NCBI GenBank assembly: GCA_003599625.1
Contig: QZIU01000026.1
Span: 1 to 24,382, forward strand
DNA: 24,382 nucleotides
Reading direction: 5' to 3'
Origin: Candidatus Parcubacteria bacterium
GTDB taxonomy: Bacteria > Patescibacteriota > Minisyncoccia > UBA9983
The notes under the pieces were generated by a model. It ran no database searches. It was given only the letters and a program-made list of their open reading frames with translations, and had not been told where the DNA came from. Shown in pieces: positions 2,061 through 23,056 of this stretch. A program made the translations under genes and the position numbers. Numbering within the stretch: the stretch's first letter is position 1; the number at the start of each line of letters is the position of its first letter.

Positions 2061-3476
2061 ATGATAGATAACAGACTGCCGTTTTGGATGAGACTGGGAA
2101 TTACAGTTTTGGGAGGAATCGCGATAGTTGTGGGATTGCTTTTCCTTGGTGGATGGTTGCTAGGGGGGAAAAAAGAGCGGCTCGTGGAATACAAAAACGA
2201 GTCCGGGAGAGTTGTTTACAAAATCGTAAACAACTCTGAAGCGTTTGAGCAAAACCAGAAAAGCGCCGAGGGTGTAGAAGGCGCAGAAGATGTAGAAGAT
2301 GTAGAAGAAATAAAAATTCCAAGATGGGGCAAATTGCTTGCTTGGTTAATTTTATTCTTTGGCACTGTGGGTTGCATTCATGCAATGGCTTGGGTCCACA
2401 AGGCAACGGGCGGAAAGTTTCATCTTTTTCTTTTTTCTCTTGAGGACGGAAAGGCCGCTGCTATTTGGGCAGTAGACCGGATTATTTCCATTAAAATCAC
2501 CTTGTATGGATATAGGATGAGAAAAGATGGCGAGGTCGTTTATTATGATCCTAACTGGATTATCAAACCTTTTTATTGGCTGAGGCATTATCTTTTTGGC
2601 AGTATCCATTTCTTGGGAATCCCCCTGATTCATCGAACCAGCCAAGAGGAATACAAATGGAAACACTTCGATCCTCTTACTAATGAAATAAAAACCGAAA
2701 CGGGCAAGAGAGGATATATTCCCCTCAGGGAATACGCCCCTCTTTTTGAATTCAAGGATCTAGACATTGGAGAAGGCGGCCAAATAAACGTGCAGGCCGC
2801 CATTCTAATCAAGGTGGTCAATCCGCGAAAAGCCCTGACCAATGCGAGAGATTGGTTTGCGGTGTTGAATGACCTTATGCAGAGCGGCGCGAAAGAATTC
2901 TTCAGCCCGAGGACGATCGAAGAAGTCTTCACGAGTAAAAGCAAAACCGGAGAAAAAATTGAAAAAATGCTCTCCGTCATAATGTACGACTACATGTCCC
3001 AAACCGACGCGATGCCTTCGGCAAAAGACATAATGCTCAGTATGGGGGAAATTTCGCAGGAAGAAAGGAGCGGGAAAATAACTCTCTTGTTATTTTTGGA
3101 GAAGCATTACGGGATCCGACTGATATCGACGAATGTAAAGTCTGTCGATGCGGCAAATAAGTCAACGGAAGAACTTTTGAATTCTCTCTCCAAACCTGCC
3201 AAAACTCAGCAAGAGGCCAATGCCTTATTGATCATGGCAGATGCCGAGGCTGAAGCCTTCAACAAAAAACGCAAAGCAATGGAAGCACCCGGTGGAAGAT
3301 TGTTGAGAACACTGGAGGCAATTGAAAACTCCAGATTGATCACGCTGGGTGGCAAAGGAGAGGATATAAACTTTTTAGTCGGTCAAGGATTCGAAGGCGC
3401 GGGAGGCAAAGAACAAAAAGAAAGAAAGAGTAAAGAAAAAAAGAAAAATGAAACAAGAGAGGAGGAGGAAGAATGA
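2061..3476 (+). CDS. SPFH/band-7 (stomatin/prohibitin/flotillin-like) membrane protein with two N-terminal TM segments and a Lys/Glu-rich tail
   Basis: The C-terminal half (INVQAAILIKVVNPRKALTNARDWFAVLNDL...HYGIRLISTNVKSVDAANKS...QQEANALLIMADAEAEAF) follows the SPFH-domain pattern. TM helices lie at about residues 10-35 and 92-112. Confidence 0.6.
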   Translation: MIDNRLPFWMRLGITVLGGIAIVVGLLFLGGWLLGGKKERLVEYKNESGRVVYKIVNNSEAFEQNQKSAEGVEGAEDVEDVEEIKIPRWGKLLAWLILFFGTVGCIHAMAWVHKATGGKFHLFLFSLEDGKAAAIWAVDRIISIKITLYGYRMRKDGEVVYYDPNWIIKPFYWLRHYLFGSIHFLGIPLIHRTSQEEYKWKHFDPLTNEIKTETGKRGYIPLREYAPLFEFKDLDIGEGGQINVQAAILIKVVNPRKALTNARDWFAVLNDLMQSGAKEFFSPRTIEEVFTSKSKTGEKIEKMLSVIMYDYMSQTDAMPSAKDIMLSMGEISQEERSGKITLLLFLEKHYGIRLISTNVKSVDAANKSTEELLNSLSKPAKTQQEANALLIMADAEAEAFNKKRKAMEAPGGRLLRTLEAIENSRLITLGGKGEDINFLVGQGFEGAGGKEQKERKSKEKKKNETREEEEE

Positions 3477-4291
3477 TGACCAAGTTATTAGGGTTCTGGA
3501 ATTGGATTATTTGGCTGTGGGCCGCAGGTTGGATCTTTAAGGCGGCAATTATCATTGTCGGCGTTTTGATTTTAGGGCTTTTAATTTTTGCCATGCTTAA
3601 AACACCAAGGCCGGGAAGAATCACCTTCGGAGCCAAATTAGTCACAAAGAAGAGAATAATCTTGGCTCTTATCCTGGGCTTTATCGGCCTCATCGTCTTG
3701 AACAATCTTCCGCAGATCAGATTGGCCAGGAAGGTTAAGAAAGTGGAAAGAAATTTGACTGAAAAAGCCTTGAAGCCGCTCGAAAAAAGAGCGGATGAAT
3801 TGGCAGAAAAAGTGGAAACCGGAGAAGGATTAACCCTTAATGAAGCTCGCGAGCTTCAGGACCTGAAAAAAGAGATCACGGCAACCAAGAAGCTGGTTAA
3901 AGAAGGACCGCCGTCGCCGCCGAAACCGGCTAAACTGAAACCGCCAAAGCCGGTTAAATGGATCTTCCAGATCAGGGCAGATCCGGAAGTGGTGATGCAA
4001 GCTGGACTGAGAGGGGTTGATCAGGTTCCTTTTCGAGAGTTTGAAGCGGTCTCTGTAAGTATCAAGGAGAAAGAGATTCGCTTCAGCTACAAGAGGAATT
4101 CTAAGAAGAGAAACGTTCTACTAACCCGAGAGTCTTCAGATCAATTCTATTTTGGAATGGTTGATCTGGGAGAAGGAATCAAAATGCAACTCTGGCTAAA
4201 AGAATCCCCTGAAGGATTCGCAGGAATGGCAGAAAATTGGGACGGAAAACATTGGTATCCCAAAGTTTCCGCTCTCCTGCTAAAATCCTAA
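3473..4291 (+). CDS. Hypothetical membrane protein, co-transcribed partner of the SPFH protein. It has two TM segments, a coiled-coil, a Pro-rich linker and a C-terminal globular domain.
   Basis: Its start overlaps the SPFH stop (ATGA). TM helices lie at residues 10-40 and 60-78. An EKALKPLEKRADELAEKVE coiled segment and a PPSPPKPAKLKPPKPVK linker follow. I recognise no family. Confidence 0.55.
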   Translation: MMTKLLGFWNWIIWLWAAGWIFKAAIIIVGVLILGLLIFAMLKTPRPGRITFGAKLVTKKRIILALILGFIGLIVLNNLPQIRLARKVKKVERNLTEKALKPLEKRADELAEKVETGEGLTLNEARELQDLKKEITATKKLVKEGPPSPPKPAKLKPPKPVKWIFQIRADPEVVMQAGLRGVDQVPFREFEAVSVSIKEKEIRFSYKRNSKKRNVLLTRESSDQFYFGMVDLGEGIKMQLWLKESPEGFAGMAENWDGKHWYPKVSALLLKS

Positions 4292-4300
4292 AAAAGTTTG

Positions 4301-4340
4301 AAAAACGCAGCCTGAACGCAATGTTCAGGCTGTTTTTATT
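4301..4340. terminator. Bidirectional rho-independent terminator between convergent operons
   Basis: The stem cagcctgaac (4308-4317) / gttcaggctg (4323-4332) is followed by tttttattt. A-run aaaaa at 4301-4305 precedes it for the opposite strand. Confidence 0.75.
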
Positions 4341-4342
4341 TA

Positions 4343-4831
4343 TTATCCGCCTGTACCCTCTCTCGTTCCTCCGTCCCCTCCCTTAAACCGCGGGATGTCT
4401 ATTTGCTGAGAGGAGCCGTCTAGCTCGAATGTGTAAACCAAGATATTGACGAAGCCCCAGAAGCTGACCATTACAAAAAGACCGATGATGCCGTAGAGAA
4501 CAAGCTGTCCTCCTTTTTTGCGCTCGTCTTCGTCTCCGCCGGACTTTATATATTTTAAAACTCCGTAAAGGAAGAAAATAACCGCAAGAGCTATCAGGAA
4601 GATCACGATCCTGTCCATTATGTCTTCAATAATATAGAAGAGATTCCAGAATGTGCCGCTTCCTCCGCCACTTCCCCCGCTGCCGCTTCCATAAATATAT
4701 TTAGCGCCTTTGCCGTAATTTACCTTAAGAAAATCTTTTTTCTCGGCAAAGGAGACAAAAGGCAAAAAAACCAAAAGAAATCCCAGAACTTTGCCGGCTC
4801 TTTTTATAATGCCATTGATATTATTCCGCAT
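4343..4831 (-). CDS. Paralog P5: signal peptide, Gly/Ser-rich linker (GSGSGGSGGGSG), two TM helices joined by the loop SGGDEDERKKGGQ, and a Gly-rich C-terminal tail
   Basis: LIALAVIFFLYGVLKYIKSGGDEDERKKGGQLVLYGIIGLFVMVSFWGFVNIL. This is the last gene of the minus-strand operon before the terminator at 4301-4340. Confidence 0.75.
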   Translation of the reverse strand: MRNNINGIIKRAGKVLGFLLVFLPFVSFAEKKDFLKVNYGKGAKYIYGSGSGGSGGGSGTFWNLFYIIEDIMDRIVIFLIALAVIFFLYGVLKYIKSGGDEDERKKGGQLVLYGIIGLFVMVSFWGFVNILVYTFELDGSSQQIDIPRFKGGDGGTREGTGG

Positions 4832-4901
4832 AAAGTGTTTGATCTTACTTAGCGACCACTCTCCCCCGCCCCGCTCTTGGCAAGGCAGGGATGAGCAGTA
4901 A

Positions 4902-5165
4902 CTAGATCGCGCCTTCTATTTCCCACCAGAAACCGGCCAGAAAATGCATTATGCCGTATACACCCACCATCACGAACATTCCTATAACCCCCCAGATCAT
5001 ATGCTCTTTGCCTTTGTCTCTTTTATCTTCATTGTCGGCGCCTAGTATATATTCCACGATTCCGTAAATAAACATCACGACGGCAATGGCAAACATGAAT
5101 CCGATTATGGGATTAAGGACATTCAACTTTATGTTCGCAATAAGTTTATCCGCTTTGTCGCTCAT
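4902..5165 (-). CDS. Paralog P4: the shortest member (87 aa) with no cleavable signal peptide and two TM helices joined by the loop GADNEDKRDKGKEH
   Basis: FAIAVVMFIYGIVEYILGADNEDKRDKGKEHMIWGVIGMFVMVGVYGIMHFL. Confidence 0.75.
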   Translation of the reverse strand: MSDKADKLIANIKLNVLNPIIGFMFAIAVVMFIYGIVEYILGADNEDKRDKGKEHMIWGVIGMFVMVGVYGIMHFLAGFWWEIEGAI

Positions 5166-5183
5166 TATTTTTTAGCTTCTTAA

Positions 5184-5534
5184 TTAAAATCTTGGCAACA
5201 GATCATCGACGGTGTCCGGTATGTCGTTATCCAGATCAAACGTCCCTGAAAGGATATTGACAAGGCCCCAGATGCTGACCATCACGAAAAGGCCGATGAT
5301 GCCGTAGATCATAAGATTTCTGGCTTTGCCCCTTTTTTCGTCATCATCGCCCGCTCTGATGTAACTGACGATGGCAATAAGCAGAATAACGACCGCCACG
5401 GCTATAAGCAAGGGAACCAATTTGCTTAAAACATCGTCGGCAAAATCAAAAATGTCTTCCAAGTCGCTGATGGCTCCCGCCACGAACGGCAGCGCCATGA
5501 ACCCGAAAGGAAGTATTCTTTTTAATAATTTCAT
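5184..5534 (-). CDS. Paralog P3: signal peptide plus two TM helices with the loop AGDDDEKRGKARN and an acidic C-terminal tail
   Basis: LIAVAVVILLIAIVSYIRAGDDDEKRGKARNLMIYGIIGLFVMVSIWGLVNIL. Confidence 0.8.
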   Translation of the reverse strand: MKLLKRILPFGFMALPFVAGAISDLEDIFDFADDVLSKLVPLLIAVAVVILLIAIVSYIRAGDDDEKRGKARNLMIYGIIGLFVMVSIWGLVNILSGTFDLDNDIPDTVDDLLPRF

Positions 5535-5630
5535 ATTTTGATTAATCTTTTTAATTATTTCTCGACCCTTATTTTAATATTTTTCAAATTTATATTTCTA
5601 TTTTAAACTATCCGCGGCAAAATGCCACTA

Positions 5631-5996
5631 TTATTCCAAACTGTCGACGGTGGATTGCAAAATCTCCACTATCACCCAGGCGCCAAGCAAAATGGCCGTT
5701 CCGATAATCGACCACAACAATCCATTTTTGGCATCTTTGATCTTGTCCTCGCTTCCTCTTGCCATCACGAGCTTCAAACCGGAATAAATTATAAACAGCG
5801 CGGCTATTGGAATCCCGATGTTAATGGCCAATTTGGAAACGACCGATATCAAGTCGTCAAAACTGTCCGCAGAAAGCGGGTTGCACAAGATTCCGCTGTC
5901 CTCGTCGGTACATTGCTCGGCTTTGAGTTTGAGCAAAGGGAAAACAAGGAAAAGTAGAATTATAAGGGTGTAATAAACTTTTTTAATATTTTTCAT
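5631..5996 (-). CDS. Paralog P2: signal peptide, a two-Cys N-terminal segment, and two TM helices with the loop ARGSEDKIKDAKNG
   Basis: IGIPIAALFIIYSGLKLVMARGSEDKIKDAKNGLLWSIIGTAILLGAWVIVEIL has the same architecture as P1 and P3-P5. Confidence 0.75.
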   Translation of the reverse strand: MKNIKKVYYTLIILLFLVFPLLKLKAEQCTDEDSGILCNPLSADSFDDLISVVSKLAINIGIPIAALFIIYSGLKLVMARGSEDKIKDAKNGLLWSIIGTAILLGAWVIVEILQSTVDSLE

Positions 5997-6009
5997 TTTG
6001 ATTTAGTTT

Positions 6010-6453
6010 TTAATCGTCGCATCCCGGAAATTTATTCCACGACTCCGATATGCTTTCTCCGGCCAAGCCGCCCAATATGACATTCACTATCATCCACGCG
6101 CCGAAAACAATGACGATCCCCCATATCGCCGCCCAAAAAGCGTTCGTTCCTTTCGCCTTGTTTTTTTCGTTCCCTCCGGAAGTAATGTACATGAATCCCC
6201 CATATATAAGGATAAGGACCGCCAAAGGAGAAGCCAGTTTGAAAGCGGCAAAGTTAACGATGTTGGAAATAAGCTGGAAGATGTCGCAAATCCCGCAATC
6301 ATTCCCTTCGCAAGGAATAAAGTCGCCCAAATGGTTGCTAGCCAGAGAATCAGCCGCTCCTCCAAAAAACAACGTCGTTACGGAAAAGAAAATAATCGCT
6401 GAAACGGGAAGAAAATAAGCCGCCCCCTTGTATATTTTTTCCAAGGACTTCAT
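6010..6453 (-). CDS. Small secreted/membrane protein P1 of the paralog array. It has a signal peptide, a Cys-rich segment and two TM helices joined by the loop SGGNEKNKAKGTN (VirB2/TrbC-like topology).
   Basis: The likely true start is ATG at 6453; TTG at 6456 is the ORF-track start. The core LAVLILIYGGFMYITSGGNEKNKAKGTNAFWAAIWGIVIVFGAWMIVNVIL is shared with the four downstream paralogs. Confidence 0.75.
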   Translation of the reverse strand: MKSLEKIYKGAAYFLPVSAIIFFSVTTLFFGGAADSLASNHLGDFIPCEGNDCGICDIFQLISNIVNFAAFKLASPLAVLILIYGGFMYITSGGNEKNKAKGTNAFWAAIWGIVIVFGAWMIVNVILGGLAGESISESWNKFPGCDD

Positions 6454-7793
6454 CAATTATTCGCTAAAACCTTTGATAATGATTGATCCAGTTTCCTTTT
6501 GGCCAAAGCCACGGCACCGGAAACAGATAAGCTTCCTGATGTAATTCCCTCCACGGCTTCTTTGAAGATCTTTCGCGTCTCTTCCGGTTCGGGCTCGAGC
6601 CAAGATTTGGCCATGATCGCGCTTTTGTTTACGGTTCCAAAATAAGCGCTCTCGGCTTCTTCCGCCAGGAGATCCCTGCGGGGAGAGGCCAACCCGGTCG
6701 CTTCTGAAAACTTTTTCGAATAAACCCTCGAGGTCATTCTTGCCATGGCGCCGAAAGAATTTATTTTTGCCGTCTCTCCGGAATTTCTCATCAAAGCCAG
6801 AAAATAAAGCTTCCCAAAAACACTTTTGGTCTTGGCTCCCTTGATCTGAGGGGATTCCGCGATGTCGAAATTCAAATGGGGATTCTTTGCCCGAATAGCC
6901 GGAAATTCGCTGGCATAACCCAAGTACATTGCCAAAGTCCCTTTGGCGAACATAGAATCAGCCTTCATCAAAGCCTTGTTCCATGAGTAAACCGTTTTGT
7001 TGGGATTGGAGAAATCGCCATAAAATTTAAAAGAATCAATGGCAGGCTTGGATCCGGAAGAGCCTTCTTCGGCAAGAACCACCTTCAGATTACCTCTCGC
7101 GTCTTCTTTTATCACCTTATTGCCGGCTTGAAGAAGCAGCATCGAAAGTATCTCCTTGGCATCCGGGATATTGTTGAACTCTCCGAGCGCCGACCCCGAT
7201 TGAACTATATTGCCGATGTCGTTTTTCTCCGTCAGTGTTTCTGCCACTTCGGCAAACTCTTCCCAGTCCTCGGGAGGCTGACTCAATCCGGCGGACGAGA
7301 ACATATCTTTGTTCCAAAATAATACGATCGGATCGATCAAAAAAGGAATGCCCGAAACGGCCCTATTCTTCTCGTCGATCAACAACTCGGATATATCCGC
7401 GAAATTATCCAAAAAGGTTCTCTCCGGATAATTTTCAAAACTTATGGGATGGACTTTGTTTCGGCTTTTTAAAACGATGTCCTGGCTTAATATCCAAAAA
7501 TCAGGCCCGCTTCCCGACGCCAAAGCCTCAGTGACATCCGAAAGATAGGAAGCCGGGGATTTTTCCGAGTAGGTTAGCCGAATTTCCCTGTTATTTTCCT
7601 TATTGAACTCGCTGACGGTTTTATTCATTCCTCCTGCGGGCAATGTCCCCCAAAAATTAAGCTGAACGGCGTTCTTGCTCTTGCCCCCTTTGTTTTTGTA
7701 TCCCGGCAGCACTCCGCCGAAGATAAGCATCGCCAAAACCGCCACAACCCCGAACCCGACAAGCAGAATTATTTGAAAAGGAGAACTTTTCAT
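6453..7793 (-). CDS. Membrane-anchored extracellular solute-binding protein (family 1, sugar-type ABC SBP homolog). No permease or ATPase lies in the window.
   Basis: N-terminal TM anchor, then IRLTYSEKSPASYLSDVTEALASGSGPDFWILSQDIV..., DPIVLFWNKDMFSSAGLSQPPEDWEEFAEVAETL and GTLAMYLGYASEFPAIRAKNPHLNFDIAESPQ blocks typical of SBP family 1. The stop overlaps the next gene's ATG (TGATG). Confidence 0.7.
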   Translation of the reverse strand: MKSSPFQIILLVGFGVVAVLAMLIFGGVLPGYKNKGGKSKNAVQLNFWGTLPAGGMNKTVSEFNKENNREIRLTYSEKSPASYLSDVTEALASGSGPDFWILSQDIVLKSRNKVHPISFENYPERTFLDNFADISELLIDEKNRAVSGIPFLIDPIVLFWNKDMFSSAGLSQPPEDWEEFAEVAETLTEKNDIGNIVQSGSALGEFNNIPDAKEILSMLLLQAGNKVIKEDARGNLKVVLAEEGSSGSKPAIDSFKFYGDFSNPNKTVYSWNKALMKADSMFAKGTLAMYLGYASEFPAIRAKNPHLNFDIAESPQIKGAKTKSVFGKLYFLALMRNSGETAKINSFGAMARMTSRVYSKKFSEATGLASPRRDLLAEEAESAYFGTVNKSAIMAKSWLEPEPEETRKIFKEAVEGITSGSLSVSGAVALAKRKLDQSLSKVLANN

Positions 7794-7795
7794 AA

Positions 7796-7862
7796 TTAGG
7801 AACTAGCTTTTTAGGAATTAGCTTTTTAGGAATTTTCCTAACTCCTACAAGCTAATTCCTAA
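7796..7862. promoter_or_regulatory. Structured intergenic element with nested and alternative hairpins built from ttaggaa / ttcctaa units, between the methyltransferase gene and the SBP-pilin operon
   Basis: ttaggaattagc (7811-7822) is the exact reverse complement of gctaattcctaa (7851-7862). An inner palindrome ttagga-attt-tcctaa lies at 7826-7841. A second copy of the left arm, ttaggaactagc (7796-7807), gives mutually exclusive pairings. Confidence 0.5.
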
Positions 7863-7865
7863 CTC

Positions 7866-8378
7866 CTATTTTTTAAAAATTATTCCGTAATGATTATCTC
7901 CGGCCTCGAATTCTTTTTCTTCCGCGAAGCCTTGCTGTAAAAACAATTTTTCCGCTTCCTGTTTTGGAAAAACAACTCCTCCTCCGGTCATCATTTTTGT
8001 CCAATCGATGACCGCCGCTTTCCCCCCGTCCTTAAGAACTCTGTGAGCTTCCTTGGCCGCCGCTTCTTTGTCGGTTAACTGAAAAAGGAGGTTGGAGATA
8101 ATCACCAGATCCACTGATCCGCTCGCCAGTTTCACGCCTTCTTTGCCCTCGACATCGGCCCAAATTATTTCAACATTGCCAAGATGATTTTTCTCAGCGG
8201 CCGATTTCACGCTCTCCAAAAGATTTTTTTGAATATCTATGGCGTAAACAACCCCGTCTCCGTTCATCTTTCTTGCCGCCGCCATCACATAATGGCCGCT
8301 TCCGCTGCCGAAATCCGCCACCACCTGCCCGGGCCGGATATCGAAATTATTGATGATTTGATCAGGAGCGATAAACAT
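7866..8378 (-). CDS. Small class I SAM-dependent methyltransferase
   Basis: Motif I VADFGSGSGHYV, the acidic residue in ...YAIDIQ, and motif IV-like DLVIISNLL. 170 aa. Confidence 0.7.
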   Translation of the reverse strand: MFIAPDQIINNFDIRPGQVVADFGSGSGHYVMAAARKMNGDGVVYAIDIQKNLLESVKSAAEKNHLGNVEIIWADVEGKEGVKLASGSVDLVIISNLLFQLTDKEAAAKEAHRVLKDGGKAAVIDWTKMMTGGGVVFPKQEAEKLFLQQGFAEEKEFEAGDNHYGIIFKK

Positions 8379-8385
8379 AAAGTTT

Positions 8386-8510
8386 AATTTTCAATTTTCA
8401 ATAACCAATTTTCAATGAATTATCAATTATTAAATTCTTAAATTTTCAATTAATTTGAAATTTGATATTTGAAAATTCATTGCAAAATTGAAAATTGTAA
8501 ATTGAAAATT
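8386..8510. repeat. Copy A of a ~120-bp AT-rich repeat element with inverted termini (aattttcaat... / ...attgaaaatt)
   Basis: The 31-nt left block aattttcaattttcaataaccaattttcaat (8386-8416) and the ~42-nt right block ttgaaaattcattgcaaaattgaaaattgtaaattgaaaatt (8469-8510) are identical to 11303-11333 and 11382-11423. The middle differs. Confidence 0.7.
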
Positions 8511-8514
8511 CATA

Positions 8515-13987: not shown

Positions 13988-13994
13988 CTATATA

Positions 13995-14140
13995 GAAGCA
14001 TGCAATAATAACTTTCGAGATGCTTCGGTGTTCCCTTAGAGTATCTAAGATATAGTTGTTTAACTATAAAGCCGAAGACTGGAGTCGCCATCTTGAGAGA
14101 CGCTGCTTCAATCTAAAAAGCCCCCAATAGGGGGCTTTTT
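13995..14140 (+). ncRNA. Candidate small RNA of about 145 nt, bracketed by a promoter and an intrinsic terminator. It is antisense to the pth upstream region. Class unknown.
   Basis: No ORF. Several internal hairpins: gaagcat/atgcttc at 13995-14026, cttaga/tctaag at 14034-14048, tatagtt/aactata at 14051-14068. It ends at the hairpin gcccccaatagggggc plus TTTTT (14120-14140). Confidence 0.3.
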
Positions 14141-16756: not shown

Positions 16757-18115
16757 ATGGAAGTAAAACTTATAAGTTGCGCGAATACGGATCCGCTTGA
16801 TCTGGCAAGTTTCGCCGCCGGAACTTGTTATCAAGACAAACTGCCGGAACTTGGCAAAAGGCTGAATGTCAAGGACAAACTCTTCAGTGTCGGGCATCAT
16901 ACGACTTTGCAGCATCATTATGCCACCTTTGCCATAGAGGAAATTGCCGTTGGCGACATTACTTTCGGAATGCATCTGGCCAGTCCGTTTTATAACAGCG
17001 ACCAAAGAAGCGGAAGATATTGCGCCAAAATGTTTCTGGAACCGGATTACGGCAAAATAGAAAATTATATAAAAAAATTTTGGCCTGAAGTCTCAAGCAA
17101 CACCCTAGCTTCCGCCGTTGATTATGTCAAAAAAGGAGTGGAAACTTACCATTCTCACATAGCGGCAGCCACGGAACTTGCGGCAAAATTTGTGGCCGAA
17201 GAAAGGCCTCGCGCCAGCGCTATTATAAAAGGAAACATCCCTAAATATGCCCAAGAACAGATGAGGATGTTTATCTCGGTCATATTCCCCACCGCTTTTG
17301 TTTTTACCATAAACGATACCGCTCTTGCGGCCATGTACGAAGCGGCGTGGACTCCGCCGATGAGATACGCCAGCGAGGAAATGGCGCGGCTTTTTGTAGA
17401 AAAGTATCCCGAGACGGCCTTTATGTTCAACGAGTCACGGAGACGGAAAACGGATTGGGCCATGTCTGTTAAAGACATTCCTTATCACGGGATTAAGTAC
17501 AGGCCGGATTTGCAGCTGTTGGAAATAACTCGCGCCGAGTTCAATCTTCCCAATAAGGAGATTATGCATCCGATTGACATGCTTCACTTCACGCCTGAGA
17601 CAATGGAGAACAATATTCCACATATCTCGAGCCTGATAGAAATTTCCACGGCAACCATGGGACAAGATCAAAGGCACCGGACCATAAAAAGAGGCTTGCC
17701 AAGATTTACCGGGAACTTCTACATTCCTCCCGTTTTAAGGGGGTTAAAACTGGAAAAAAAAGCCATCGAACTGATGAATCAATGGGCTGAGGTCAGTAAA
17801 AAAATCCCCGACACCCTGGCGATGATTCTTGCTCCATACGGCGCCATGGTTTCCTACGCTAAATCGGGATCGCTTAACGCAATCGCCCACGAGCAGGCAA
17901 AAAGATTATGCTGGTCCGCGCAGGAAGAGATTTACCACCTTGGGAGACTGCAAAGGTTGGCCGTTGAGGAAAAACTCGGGAAGGCGACTTCTCTTCTTAA
18001 AATCTTCGAACCTCCTTGCTACGAGAAAGGCATATGCTCCGAGGGGGAAAGATATTGCGGAAGAGACAGGGAGCTCAGGAAAAACGGCGATTATTTTCCC
18101 GGAAGAAAAATTTGA
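16757..18115 (+). CDS. ThyX-like flavin-dependent thymidylate synthase homolog with an internal tandem duplication (two ThyX-like half-domains, 452 aa)
   Basis: The N-terminal half reads HHTTLQHHYATFAIEE...GMHLASPFYNSDQRSGRY. It keeps the SGRY loop, but RHR is replaced by MHL. The C-terminal half reads HISSLIEISTATMGQDQRHRTIKRGLPRFTGNFYIPPV...RLCWSAQEEI. It keeps RHR and the AQWEI-like motif but not the Ser/RY. Confidence 0.6.
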   Translation: MEVKLISCANTDPLDLASFAAGTCYQDKLPELGKRLNVKDKLFSVGHHTTLQHHYATFAIEEIAVGDITFGMHLASPFYNSDQRSGRYCAKMFLEPDYGKIENYIKKFWPEVSSNTLASAVDYVKKGVETYHSHIAAATELAAKFVAEERPRASAIIKGNIPKYAQEQMRMFISVIFPTAFVFTINDTALAAMYEAAWTPPMRYASEEMARLFVEKYPETAFMFNESRRRKTDWAMSVKDIPYHGIKYRPDLQLLEITRAEFNLPNKEIMHPIDMLHFTPETMENNIPHISSLIEISTATMGQDQRHRTIKRGLPRFTGNFYIPPVLRGLKLEKKAIELMNQWAEVSKKIPDTLAMILAPYGAMVSYAKSGSLNAIAHEQAKRLCWSAQEEIYHLGRLQRLAVEEKLGKATSLLKIFEPPCYEKGICSEGERYCGRDRELRKNGDYFPGRKI

Positions 18116-22995: not shown

Positions 22996-23056
22996 ATTTA
23001 AGATTATTTTTTATCCACACCTTCTAAAAATTCCCGGTATATCTTATAATAAGAGC

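Follow-up and report, generated by a model that had tools for sequence, protein, structure and literature searches.

A methyltransferase, a solute-binding protein and specialized VirB2-type pilin homologs in a conserved operon of Parcubacteria

Arrays of VirB2-like pilin genes are an already known kind of locus in Patescibacteria (PMC12102498, PMC10633639, PMC12857230), and the array described here, a run of five small genes directly following a gene for a solute-binding protein (SBP), is of this kind. It lies on a stretch of 24,382 nt that is the complete contig QZIU01000026.1 of Candidatus Parcubacteria bacterium (class Paceibacteria; candidate phyla radiation, CPR/Patescibacteria) and that we call the window throughout. 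A published survey searched with the families PF18895 and PF04956 and counted 441 arrays that comprise 2-11 pilin genes (mean identity 25%), as well as VirB4 in 2,417 of 3,035 Patescibacteria genomes, a dataset of which Paceibacteria make up about one third (Quinonero-Coronel et al., 2025). In Southlakia epibionticum, a predicted pilin series (SEML1_0014-0019) is located within the gene cluster of its type IV secretion system (T4SS) and is essential (Wang et al., 2023), and PF18895 is found on all five genes of this series with retrieved annotation. A FEMS review of 2025 describes the patescibacterial systems as unique among monoderm T4SSs, with the “potential to elaborate conjugative pili”, and the T4SS pilins of cultured Paceibacteria rank with the most strongly expressed genes that have a signal peptide. 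The patescibacterial T4SS is essential in the sole species tested, and its function has been described as completely unknown. What is newly found here is an operon of a methyltransferase, an SBP and pilin genes, which contains a fixed set of specialized paralogs and is unlinked to VirB4; the literature that we searched makes no mention of a link of an SBP or a methyltransferase to pilin arrays. The genes of the operon, all on the minus strand, are the following.

7866-8378, minus strand: class I S-adenosylmethionine (SAM)-dependent methyltransferase, 170 amino acids (aa), no transmembrane (TM) segment; opens the conserved operon
6453-7793, minus strand: membrane-anchored family 1 SBP, 446 aa, with one N-terminal TM helix
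6010-6456, minus strand: pilin type A, 148 aa; predicted signal peptide, PCxGxxC before helix 1, two-helix core; PF18895 39.8 bits
5631-5996, minus strand: pilin type B, 121 aa, second position; predicted signal peptide, NPL motif, pilin core; PF18895 45.0 bits
5184-5534, minus strand: pilin type C, 116 aa, normally next-to-last; predicted signal peptide and pilin core; PF18895 46.1 bits
4902-5165, minus strand: pilin type D, 87 aa; two-helix core, no signal peptide; PF18895 42.2 bits
4343-4831, minus strand: fifth pilin, 162 aa; Gly-Ser linker and Gly-rich tail; PF18895 34.6 bits

Family and topology of the five small proteins

The five small open reading frames (ORFs) span 4343-6456. All of their products pass the gathering cut-off (26.6 bits) of PF18895 (T4SS_pilin, VirB2/TrbC-like), a profile of 71 positions, with 34.6-46.1 bits, and the matches cover the profile from positions 2-8 to positions 67-71. 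None of the five reaches the gathering cut-off of the TrbC/VirB2 family PF04956 (27.9 bits): types A (22.4 bits, E=1.5e-4) and B (21.2 bits, E=3.5e-4) stay below the threshold and the other three give no match. Among 101 orthologs from related operons, 100 match PF18895 and 37 match PF04956 TrbC (best E=4.2e-10), and no family besides these two is matched by more than five of the 101 proteins. It is due to these profile matches of the orthologs that sequence homology, and not topology alone, ties the small proteins to the canonical VirB2/TrbC pilins. All five also match NF045849, the pilin-like family of mycoplasma integrative and conjugative elements (ICEs), over nearly the full length (E 2.5e-9 to 5.5e-4), with scores of 19.6-36.7 bits, below the equivalog cut-off of 40 bits. 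Moreover, some orthologs of the window proteins are named “pilin” by NCBI. Judged by these matches, the five small proteins are VirB2/TrbC-type pilin homologs.

Within the window, pairwise BLASTP comparison of the five gives E-values from 1e-5 to 1e-23 at 27-43% identity, which puts their paralogy well beyond chance. They share a core of a hydrophobic helix, a charged loop and a second helix, in which only two alignment columns are identical in all five. Hydropathy indicates a segment like a signal peptide followed by two hydrophobic helices in four proteins and the two helices only in the protein of 87 aa; this is the topology of VirB2-type pilins (signal peptide, two helices, short charged loop), with type D lacking the signal peptide. 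Putative cleavage sites of the AxA type can be read from the sequences of the four (GAA/DS, KA/EQ, AGA/IS and SFA/EK). In an AlphaFold2 model for which 65 sequences were used, the 116-aa protein has helices at residues 2-20, 25-61 and 65-98, and the hairpin reaches a predicted local distance difference test (pLDDT) score of about 90. In structure searches the two-helix hairpin matched generic coiled coils and helical hairpins, thousands of unrelated chains, and a profile search of PDB sequences gave only a weak match (E=0.3).

A preliminary description of this DNA, made from the letters alone, had placed six minus-strand ORFs here, and all six are found at the positions that it gave. It had read the five small genes as paralogs of one architecture, with a signal peptide in four and two helices in all, and this is borne out by BLASTP, by membership in one Pfam family, by hydropathy and by the model of the 116-aa protein. 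The charged loops that it quoted are all present, though it listed them in reverse gene order, and it was also right on the N-terminal segments with Cys in the first two genes and on the last gene's Gly-Ser linker and Gly-rich tail. The YG...Y and WG.VNIL blocks, given there as common to all, are conserved and not invariant, which follows from the two identical columns. Its suggestion of a VirB2/TrbC-like pilin array agrees with the PF18895 matches of all five and with the TrbC matches of the orthologs.

Small size, signal peptides and two hydrophobic helices would also fit secreted small peptides, that is bacteriocins or holin-like membrane disruptors. We regard this as scarcely credible, since no exporter, immunity or lysis genes are present nearby in any locus, no PHROG matches were obtained and the matches to pilin families are specific and significant. 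A phage or holin origin was likewise rejected for the lack of PHROG matches.

Operon structure and positional orthology in related genomes

The context of the operon was drawn from loci of SBP homologs. The first four homologs (59% to 37% identity) already present the same picture: GyrA, methyltransferase, SBP, four to six PF18895 genes and a convergent pair of membrane-protein genes. When one genome per species was scanned with an SBP profile, relatives of the SBP turned out to be encoded on at least 596 stretches, the best 80 loci of which were analyzed. Many lineage names of the Parcubacteria group occur in these loci, among them Campbell-, Terry-, Taylor-, Kaiser-, Nomura-, Taga-, Niyogi-, Giovannoni-, Zambryskii- and Komeilibacteria. 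With a hidden Markov model built from the window pilins, 404 pilin ORFs were detected in the loci, nearly all of them on the same strand and directly after the SBP gene. Of the 68 loci whose sequence continues for 2.5 kb or more past the SBP gene, 66 have at least three pilin genes there and 65 have at least four. The operon of methyltransferase, SBP and pilins is thus conserved in the approximately 80 species-level genomes examined. The preliminary description had proposed such a synteny check, and its outcome is that the unit of SBP and array is conserved and that the number of C-type copies varies.

In 83 of 85 loci the methyltransferase gene directly precedes the SBP gene and has the same orientation. 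The median gap between the two is 6 nt, with many 4-nt overlaps, and that between the SBP gene and the first pilin gene is 4 nt, whereas GyrA and the methyltransferase are separated by a median of 118 nt with insertions of up to 4 kb. Because the inner junctions are tight and the GyrA junction is loose, the operon consists of methyltransferase, SBP and pilins, in the order SAM-methyltransferase, SBP, pilins A-B-(C)n-C-D. In the window, SBP and first pilin gene are linked by a TGATG stop/start overlap, as was noticed before; type A would start either with TTG at 6456 or with ATG at 6453, the latter overlapping the SBP stop codon. Further upstream, the block Pth-S1-MBL-GyrA-methyltransferase-SBP is syntenic across the loci, and the right flank varies between genomes (enolase versus RbfA/IF-2) with the unit remaining intact. 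The methyltransferase itself matches the Pfam families Methyltransf_31, Methyltransf_11 and Methyltransf_25, and its relatives in the PDB are generic only.

The commonest array layouts in the related loci are ABCCD, ABECD, ABCD and ABCCCD, where E stands for a C-like copy that best matches the fifth gene of the window, and one to three C-type copies are present per array. The best match of type A is the gene in position 1 in 75 of 83 loci, and the motif (L)VPCxGxxC before helix 1 is conserved among the A orthologs. Type B finds its best match in position 2 (66 of 82 loci), with a conserved NPL. For type C the match is the next-to-last (40 loci) or the third-from-last gene (30 loci), that is 70 of 79, and orthologs in the wider database reach up to 72% identity. 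For type D, which has an NP motif, the best match closes the array in 64 of 79 loci, with 50-73% identity, so that D is the final gene of the ancestral operon. The fifth pilin has C as its nearest paralog in the window (43% identity, E=1e-23). An ortholog in fifth position exists only in the nearest relatives L001-L003, and elsewhere the fifth pilin matches genes in C position; by these matches it is a lineage-specific extra C-type copy. The window pilins are 42-68% identical to their orthologs in L002, a Paceibacter relative with an SBP 52% identical to that of the window, which is above the identity between the paralogs of the window. Types A-D are therefore, by position, motif and identity, ancient, specialized positional orthologs with type-specific motifs and not recently diversifying copies, and such fixed specialized paralogs argue for a heteromeric assembly with distinct roles.

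This bears on a reading that the preliminary description favored, namely surface-exposed paralogs under diversifying pressure. Such selection would give antigenic or host-range variation, as it was proposed for the VirB2 copies of Bartonella or Anaplasma. The low paralog identity of 27-43%, the variable number of C copies and a published suggestion for Patescibacteria arrays speak in favor of this reading. However, it is contradicted by positional orthology, by the type motifs and by an identity across genomes that exceeds that within the genome, and for A, B and D it fails on the first, second and last positions, which are kept in the majority of the loci. Hence diversifying pressure is very improbable as an explanation of this array, which also corrects the usual interpretation of arrays of this kind as families for antigenic variation.

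In some genomes the pilin in A position is fused to a domain at its N-terminus, a subtilase (Peptidase_S8) in one operon pilin and a bacterial Ig-like domain (Big_5) in another ORF of the pilin arrays, and several ORFs are fusions of two pilin domains. These fusions fit an outward-facing N-terminus of the pilin that is able to bear functional modules. Modular operon pilins are located at L015:4722-6347, L008:5330-6325, L053:12290-13225, L043:13582-14319 and L042:12565-13296. Furthermore, two loci have a broken array: in L020 (4492-6230) an A-type pilin alone adjoins the SBP and the remainder of the array is missing, and in L085 (10001-12206) A stands alone beside the SBP with the remaining array about 5.5 kb further on. 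The retention of SBP and A in both hints at a specific partnership of SBP and pilin A.

Three elements between the genes of the window have a predicted structure or regulatory signal.

7790-7870, minus strand: 26-bp hairpin in the 72-nt spacer between methyltransferase and SBP genes, -33.3 kcal/mol, z=-6.3
5535-5630, minus strand: AT-rich junction of 96 nt before pilin C, candidate internal promoter
4828-4905, minus strand: GC-rich hairpin between D and the fifth pilin, RNA fold -35.9 kcal/mol, z=-4.4, no U tail

The first hairpin is built from a direct repeat, TAGGAGTTAGGAA in two copies, and ends 4 nt ahead of the SBP ATG. As most related loci have almost no spacer there, it looks lineage-specific; it could represent the insertion of a repeat or an element that controls translation. 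The junction before C is the sole long one inside the related arrays, with a median of 90 nt versus 3-17 nt elsewhere. In the window, 5628-5600 and 5600-5571 match the promoter consensus, and a leader motif, GGTCG, stands about 36 nt ahead of the ATG of pilin C; related junctions before C bear -10-like boxes, and GGTCG is present in 19 of 58 of them versus approximately 4 expected, mostly at -28 to -51. It is predicted that this junction probably acts as an internal promoter or leader for the C-D pair, and would thereby boost C and D. As D is terminal in most genomes, the strong hairpin behind it probably corresponds to the 3' end of the ancestral operon. At the other end, the AT-rich region 8379-8514 upstream of the methyltransferase contains repeated TTGAAAATT / CAATTTTCAATTT units and promoter-like hexamers, and is likely the promoter region of the operon.

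A DnaA-box-like motif, TATCC[AC]CA, was also observed on the coding strand in 22 loci (L007-L086), mostly 75-126 nt ahead of the C-type ATG, with a density in those junctions of 2.6 per kb versus 0.05 per kb per strand overall; it may be a putative site for a transcription factor or for DnaA. As a feature of the window operon the motif was rejected, as it is absent from the B-C junction of the window and not enriched in the window. Perfect copies of TTATCCACA in the window are located at 143-151, just beyond the enolase gene, and at 23011-23019, 38 nt upstream of ftsA.

The solute-binding protein, the T4SS machinery and a proposed role

The SBP matches the Pfam families SBP_bac_8 and SBP_bac_1 above cut-off, with scores of 76.7 and 66.2 bits. 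An NCBI protein of Candidatus Parcubacteria has the identical sequence (100%). According to hydropathy, its TM segment comprises residues 1-33 (window 7695-7793). The AlphaFold2 model (pLDDT 92.6) has the two-lobed fold of a binding protein, for which Foldseek returned cyclo/maltodextrin-, manno- and sophoro-oligosaccharide-binding proteins as well as UgpB (E about 1e-22, TM-score 0.7-0.8, 15-20% identity). Many aromatic residues are invariant among 63 SBP homologs. Judged by the model and its structural relatives, the SBP seems to be a functional binder of a ligand, which is probably a glycan. The TM anchor is unusually conserved among the homologs (M-K-x-S-x-F-Q-I-I-L-L...A-V-L-x-F), a conservation that appears to exceed the needs of simple anchoring. 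The possibility that the SBP carries a class III (prepilin-like) signal was rejected, as inspection of the N-terminus found neither Gly at -1 nor Glu at +5. The preliminary description had called this protein a family 1 SBP without permease or ATPase partner, which Pfam, the model and a survey of the neighbors support: neither a permease nor an ATPase gene was found among the window ORFs scanned or adjoining the SBP in the related loci, where its constant neighbors are the methyltransferase and the pilins.

It could be argued that the genes are only adjacent, and that the SBP serves an ABC sugar importer encoded elsewhere, with an unrelated methyltransferase and mere co-transcription of the whole. 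The synteny of the block from Pth to SBP, the normal and confidently modelled sugar-SBP fold with its conserved aromatics and the tight packing of unrelated genes that is common in streamlined genomes are in line with this. However, the junctions from methyltransferase to pilins overlap or measure a few nt next to a loose GyrA junction, the right flank changes while the unit stays whole, and the pair of SBP and A outlasts the breakage of the array, which makes mere adjacency improbable.

Concerning the machinery, a Pfam scan of the substantial gene-like ORFs of the window detected none of VirB4, VirB6, VirB11 and VirD4, as the preliminary description had said for VirB4, VirB6 and VirD4. In the related loci the check for VirB4 covered 10 kb around the SBP and considered those ORFs of 400 aa or more that form recurrent clusters, together with ORFs with a Walker A motif. 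No VirB4 was found within this distance in any of the approximately 80 loci; therefore the machinery is probably encoded elsewhere, and the array is separated from it as had been supposed. The other option offered at that time, an undescribed envelope system, does not hold in view of a curated Pfam family and of the published Patescibacteria arrays. In a published table VirB4 is scored as present in three of five operon-bearing genomes, including the closest relative examined (GCA_013360865.1). A homolog of the VirD4/TraG-type coupling protein is located at L019:993-3506, about 6.5 kb upstream of the SBP, in that genome only.

We consider it the best explanation, with a probability of about 0.6, that the five small proteins are pilin subunits of a patescibacterial T4SS, and that the SBP, expressed together with them, serves as a receptor at the surface or as a partner in assembly. 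Family membership, topology, operon structure and its conservation, positional orthology and the separation from VirB4 were observed directly in the sequences and models; from there we infer pilus building, a division of labor among the paralogs and roles for the SBP and the methyltransferase as follows. The pilins would insert into the membrane as two-helix hairpins, four of them after cleavage of the signal-peptidase type, with the charged loop assumed to be cytoplasmic by analogy to characterized VirB2-type pilins. There they would form the membrane pool of subunits for a patescibacterial T4SS derived from the monoderm conjugation type, to which VirB4 and the remaining machinery would be supplied from elsewhere in the genome. 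With their specialized N-terminal extracellular modules, types A and B could be minor, tip or initiator subunits; C and D behind the probable internal promoter are candidate bulk subunits, and the fifth pilin would be a recent additional copy of C. The SBP most likely works at the cell surface beside this structure, where it would be a receptor for glycans, used in host contact or in the capture of nutrients, or else an assembly partner of pilin A.

Several points weigh against this explanation. The structure searches did not single out solved pilins (TraA, VirB2, TraM, TrbC), and an hhalign comparison with one VirB2 sequence of a Ti plasmid was weak (E=0.1). VirB4 is not encoded within 10 kb of the SBP in the loci analyzed, and two of the five operon-bearing genomes in the published table are VirB4-negative, both of them scaffold-level assemblies. 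The literature that we consulted treats a T4SS pilus of Patescibacteria as a possibility only. As the genes from GyrA to the pilins are syntenic as a whole, some of the adjacency may be inherited gene order, and a putative contact between SBP and pilin is deduced from gene adjacency.

Some of the same facts would suit a complex of SBP and pilins in the envelope that is independent of a T4SS and does not involve VirB4, such as a bindosome-like scaffold or an SBP-dependent channel. Coupling of the SBP to the array is seen in almost all loci, a permease is never adjacent, the operon is unlinked to virB4 with two operon-bearing genomes scored VirB4-negative, the TM anchor of the SBP is unusually conserved, and SBP and pilin A alone persist in L020. 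There is even a precedent in the bindosome (Bas) of Sulfolobus, where small pilin-like proteins are needed for the surface display of sugar-binding proteins (PMC3047682). However, the small proteins are homologous to VirB2/TrbC, family members of Saccharimonadia are located in a T4SS cluster, free of an SBP and essential, VirB2-type pilins are not known to polymerize in the absence of VirB4, and the N-terminus of the SBP does not contain a prepilin-type cleavage motif. We therefore think that a complex independent of a T4SS is rather unlikely, and retain T4SS pilins with an associated SBP as the preferred explanation.

A bolder reading takes the SBP and the VirB2-like proteins as one machine, a filament or stalk of the T4SS type that carries, or is gated by, an SBP of the oligosaccharide type. 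This is quite doubtful. If it were true, Paceibacteria would gain an SBP-guided conduit for host recognition or for the import of host-derived molecules, an uptake route that is bindosome-like or coupled to a pilus and needs no ABC permease, and the methyltransferase of the operon would have a pilin or a lipid component as its target. In any case, many Paceibacteria have four specialized VirB2-like pilins hard-wired to a sugar-type SBP and a methyltransferase and not to VirB4, which suggests how a poorly understood T4SS might contact or feed on the host. The operon thereby offers handles for experiments: a soluble SBP ectodomain that can be screened, a defined pair of SBP and pilin A, and a candidate division into major and minor pilins.

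Flanking genes and comparison with known systems

Beyond the end of the array, the window contains the following features.

2061-4291, plus strand: convergent pair of membrane-protein genes, SPFH/Band-7 protein (2061-3476) and TM/coiled-coil protein (3473-4291)
4307-4333, both strands: predicted bidirectional intrinsic terminator common to the array and the convergent gene, with terminator-like sites on both strands

The product of 2061-3476 matches Pfam Band_7, and TM segments are predicted in the convergent pair. An SPFH-like gene is present on the opposite strand, 0.5-2.6 kb beyond the last pilin, in at least 36 loci, and its TM/coiled-coil partner is fast-evolving. The two are conserved neighbors of the pilin array, which may reflect a common function or synteny only. 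The hairpin of the terminator folds with -17.5 kcal/mol (z=-3.6) in RNA folding.

According to Pfam, the remaining substantial gene-like ORFs of the window have housekeeping functions, for example enolase, GyrA, S1, Pth and SHMT, and further signal peptidase I, HisRS, YbeY and FtsA. Among them is a dTMP-salvage cluster with Tmk (thymidylate kinase), ThyX, dCTP deaminase, dCMP deaminase and MazG, in which the ThyX-like protein (16757-18115, 452 aa) has two Thy1 stretches and about twice the usual length. The gene-poor interval between pth and glyA contains the Rfam RNA motif DUF3800-V at 13994-14110 on the plus strand (52.6 bits, gathering score 37.4).

Of the systems to which the operon can be compared, the TrbC/VirB2 pilins of diderm T4SSs (PF04956) share with it the signal peptide, the two hydrophobic helices and the short charged loop. 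They differ in that the host of the window array is a monoderm, in that the array has several specialized paralogs in place of one major pilin, and in that no VirB genes are adjacent to it. The Mbov_0395 family of mycoplasma ICEs (NF045849) likewise consists of small two-helix pilin-like proteins and belongs to conjugation in a wall-less monoderm, whereas its members are single genes on mobile elements and the window contains a chromosomal array. PrgZ of pCF10 and TraC of pAD1 are family 5 binders of peptide pheromones; they have a regulatory role and make use of the Opp permease encoded on the chromosome. They resemble the window SBP in being encoded with T4SS-related genes of monoderms and in having no permease of their own; the window SBP, in contrast, is of family 1 and has an oligosaccharide-type fold. 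In archaea, DNA import by Ced/Ted uses VirB2-like small membrane proteins together with a VirB4-type ATPase. The Ced components are named in PMC11868833. The likeness consists in VirB2-like proteins, a cell without outer membrane and a role in import rather than export; these systems belong to another domain of life, and are not known to have an SBP or a methyltransferase as partner. The bindosome is an analogy only, as its proteins are of the type IV pilus type with class III signal peptides whereas those of the window are of the VirB2 type. Close counterparts are the arrays of S. epibionticum and other Patescibacteria, which have in common with the window the family PF18895, tandem divergent copies (about 25% identity), the phylum and the background of a monoderm T4SS. 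The array of S. epibionticum lies inside the T4SS cluster with virB4, and no SBP is annotated there among the genes with retrieved annotation, whereas the window array is unlinked to this machinery and forms one operon with a methyltransferase and an SBP.

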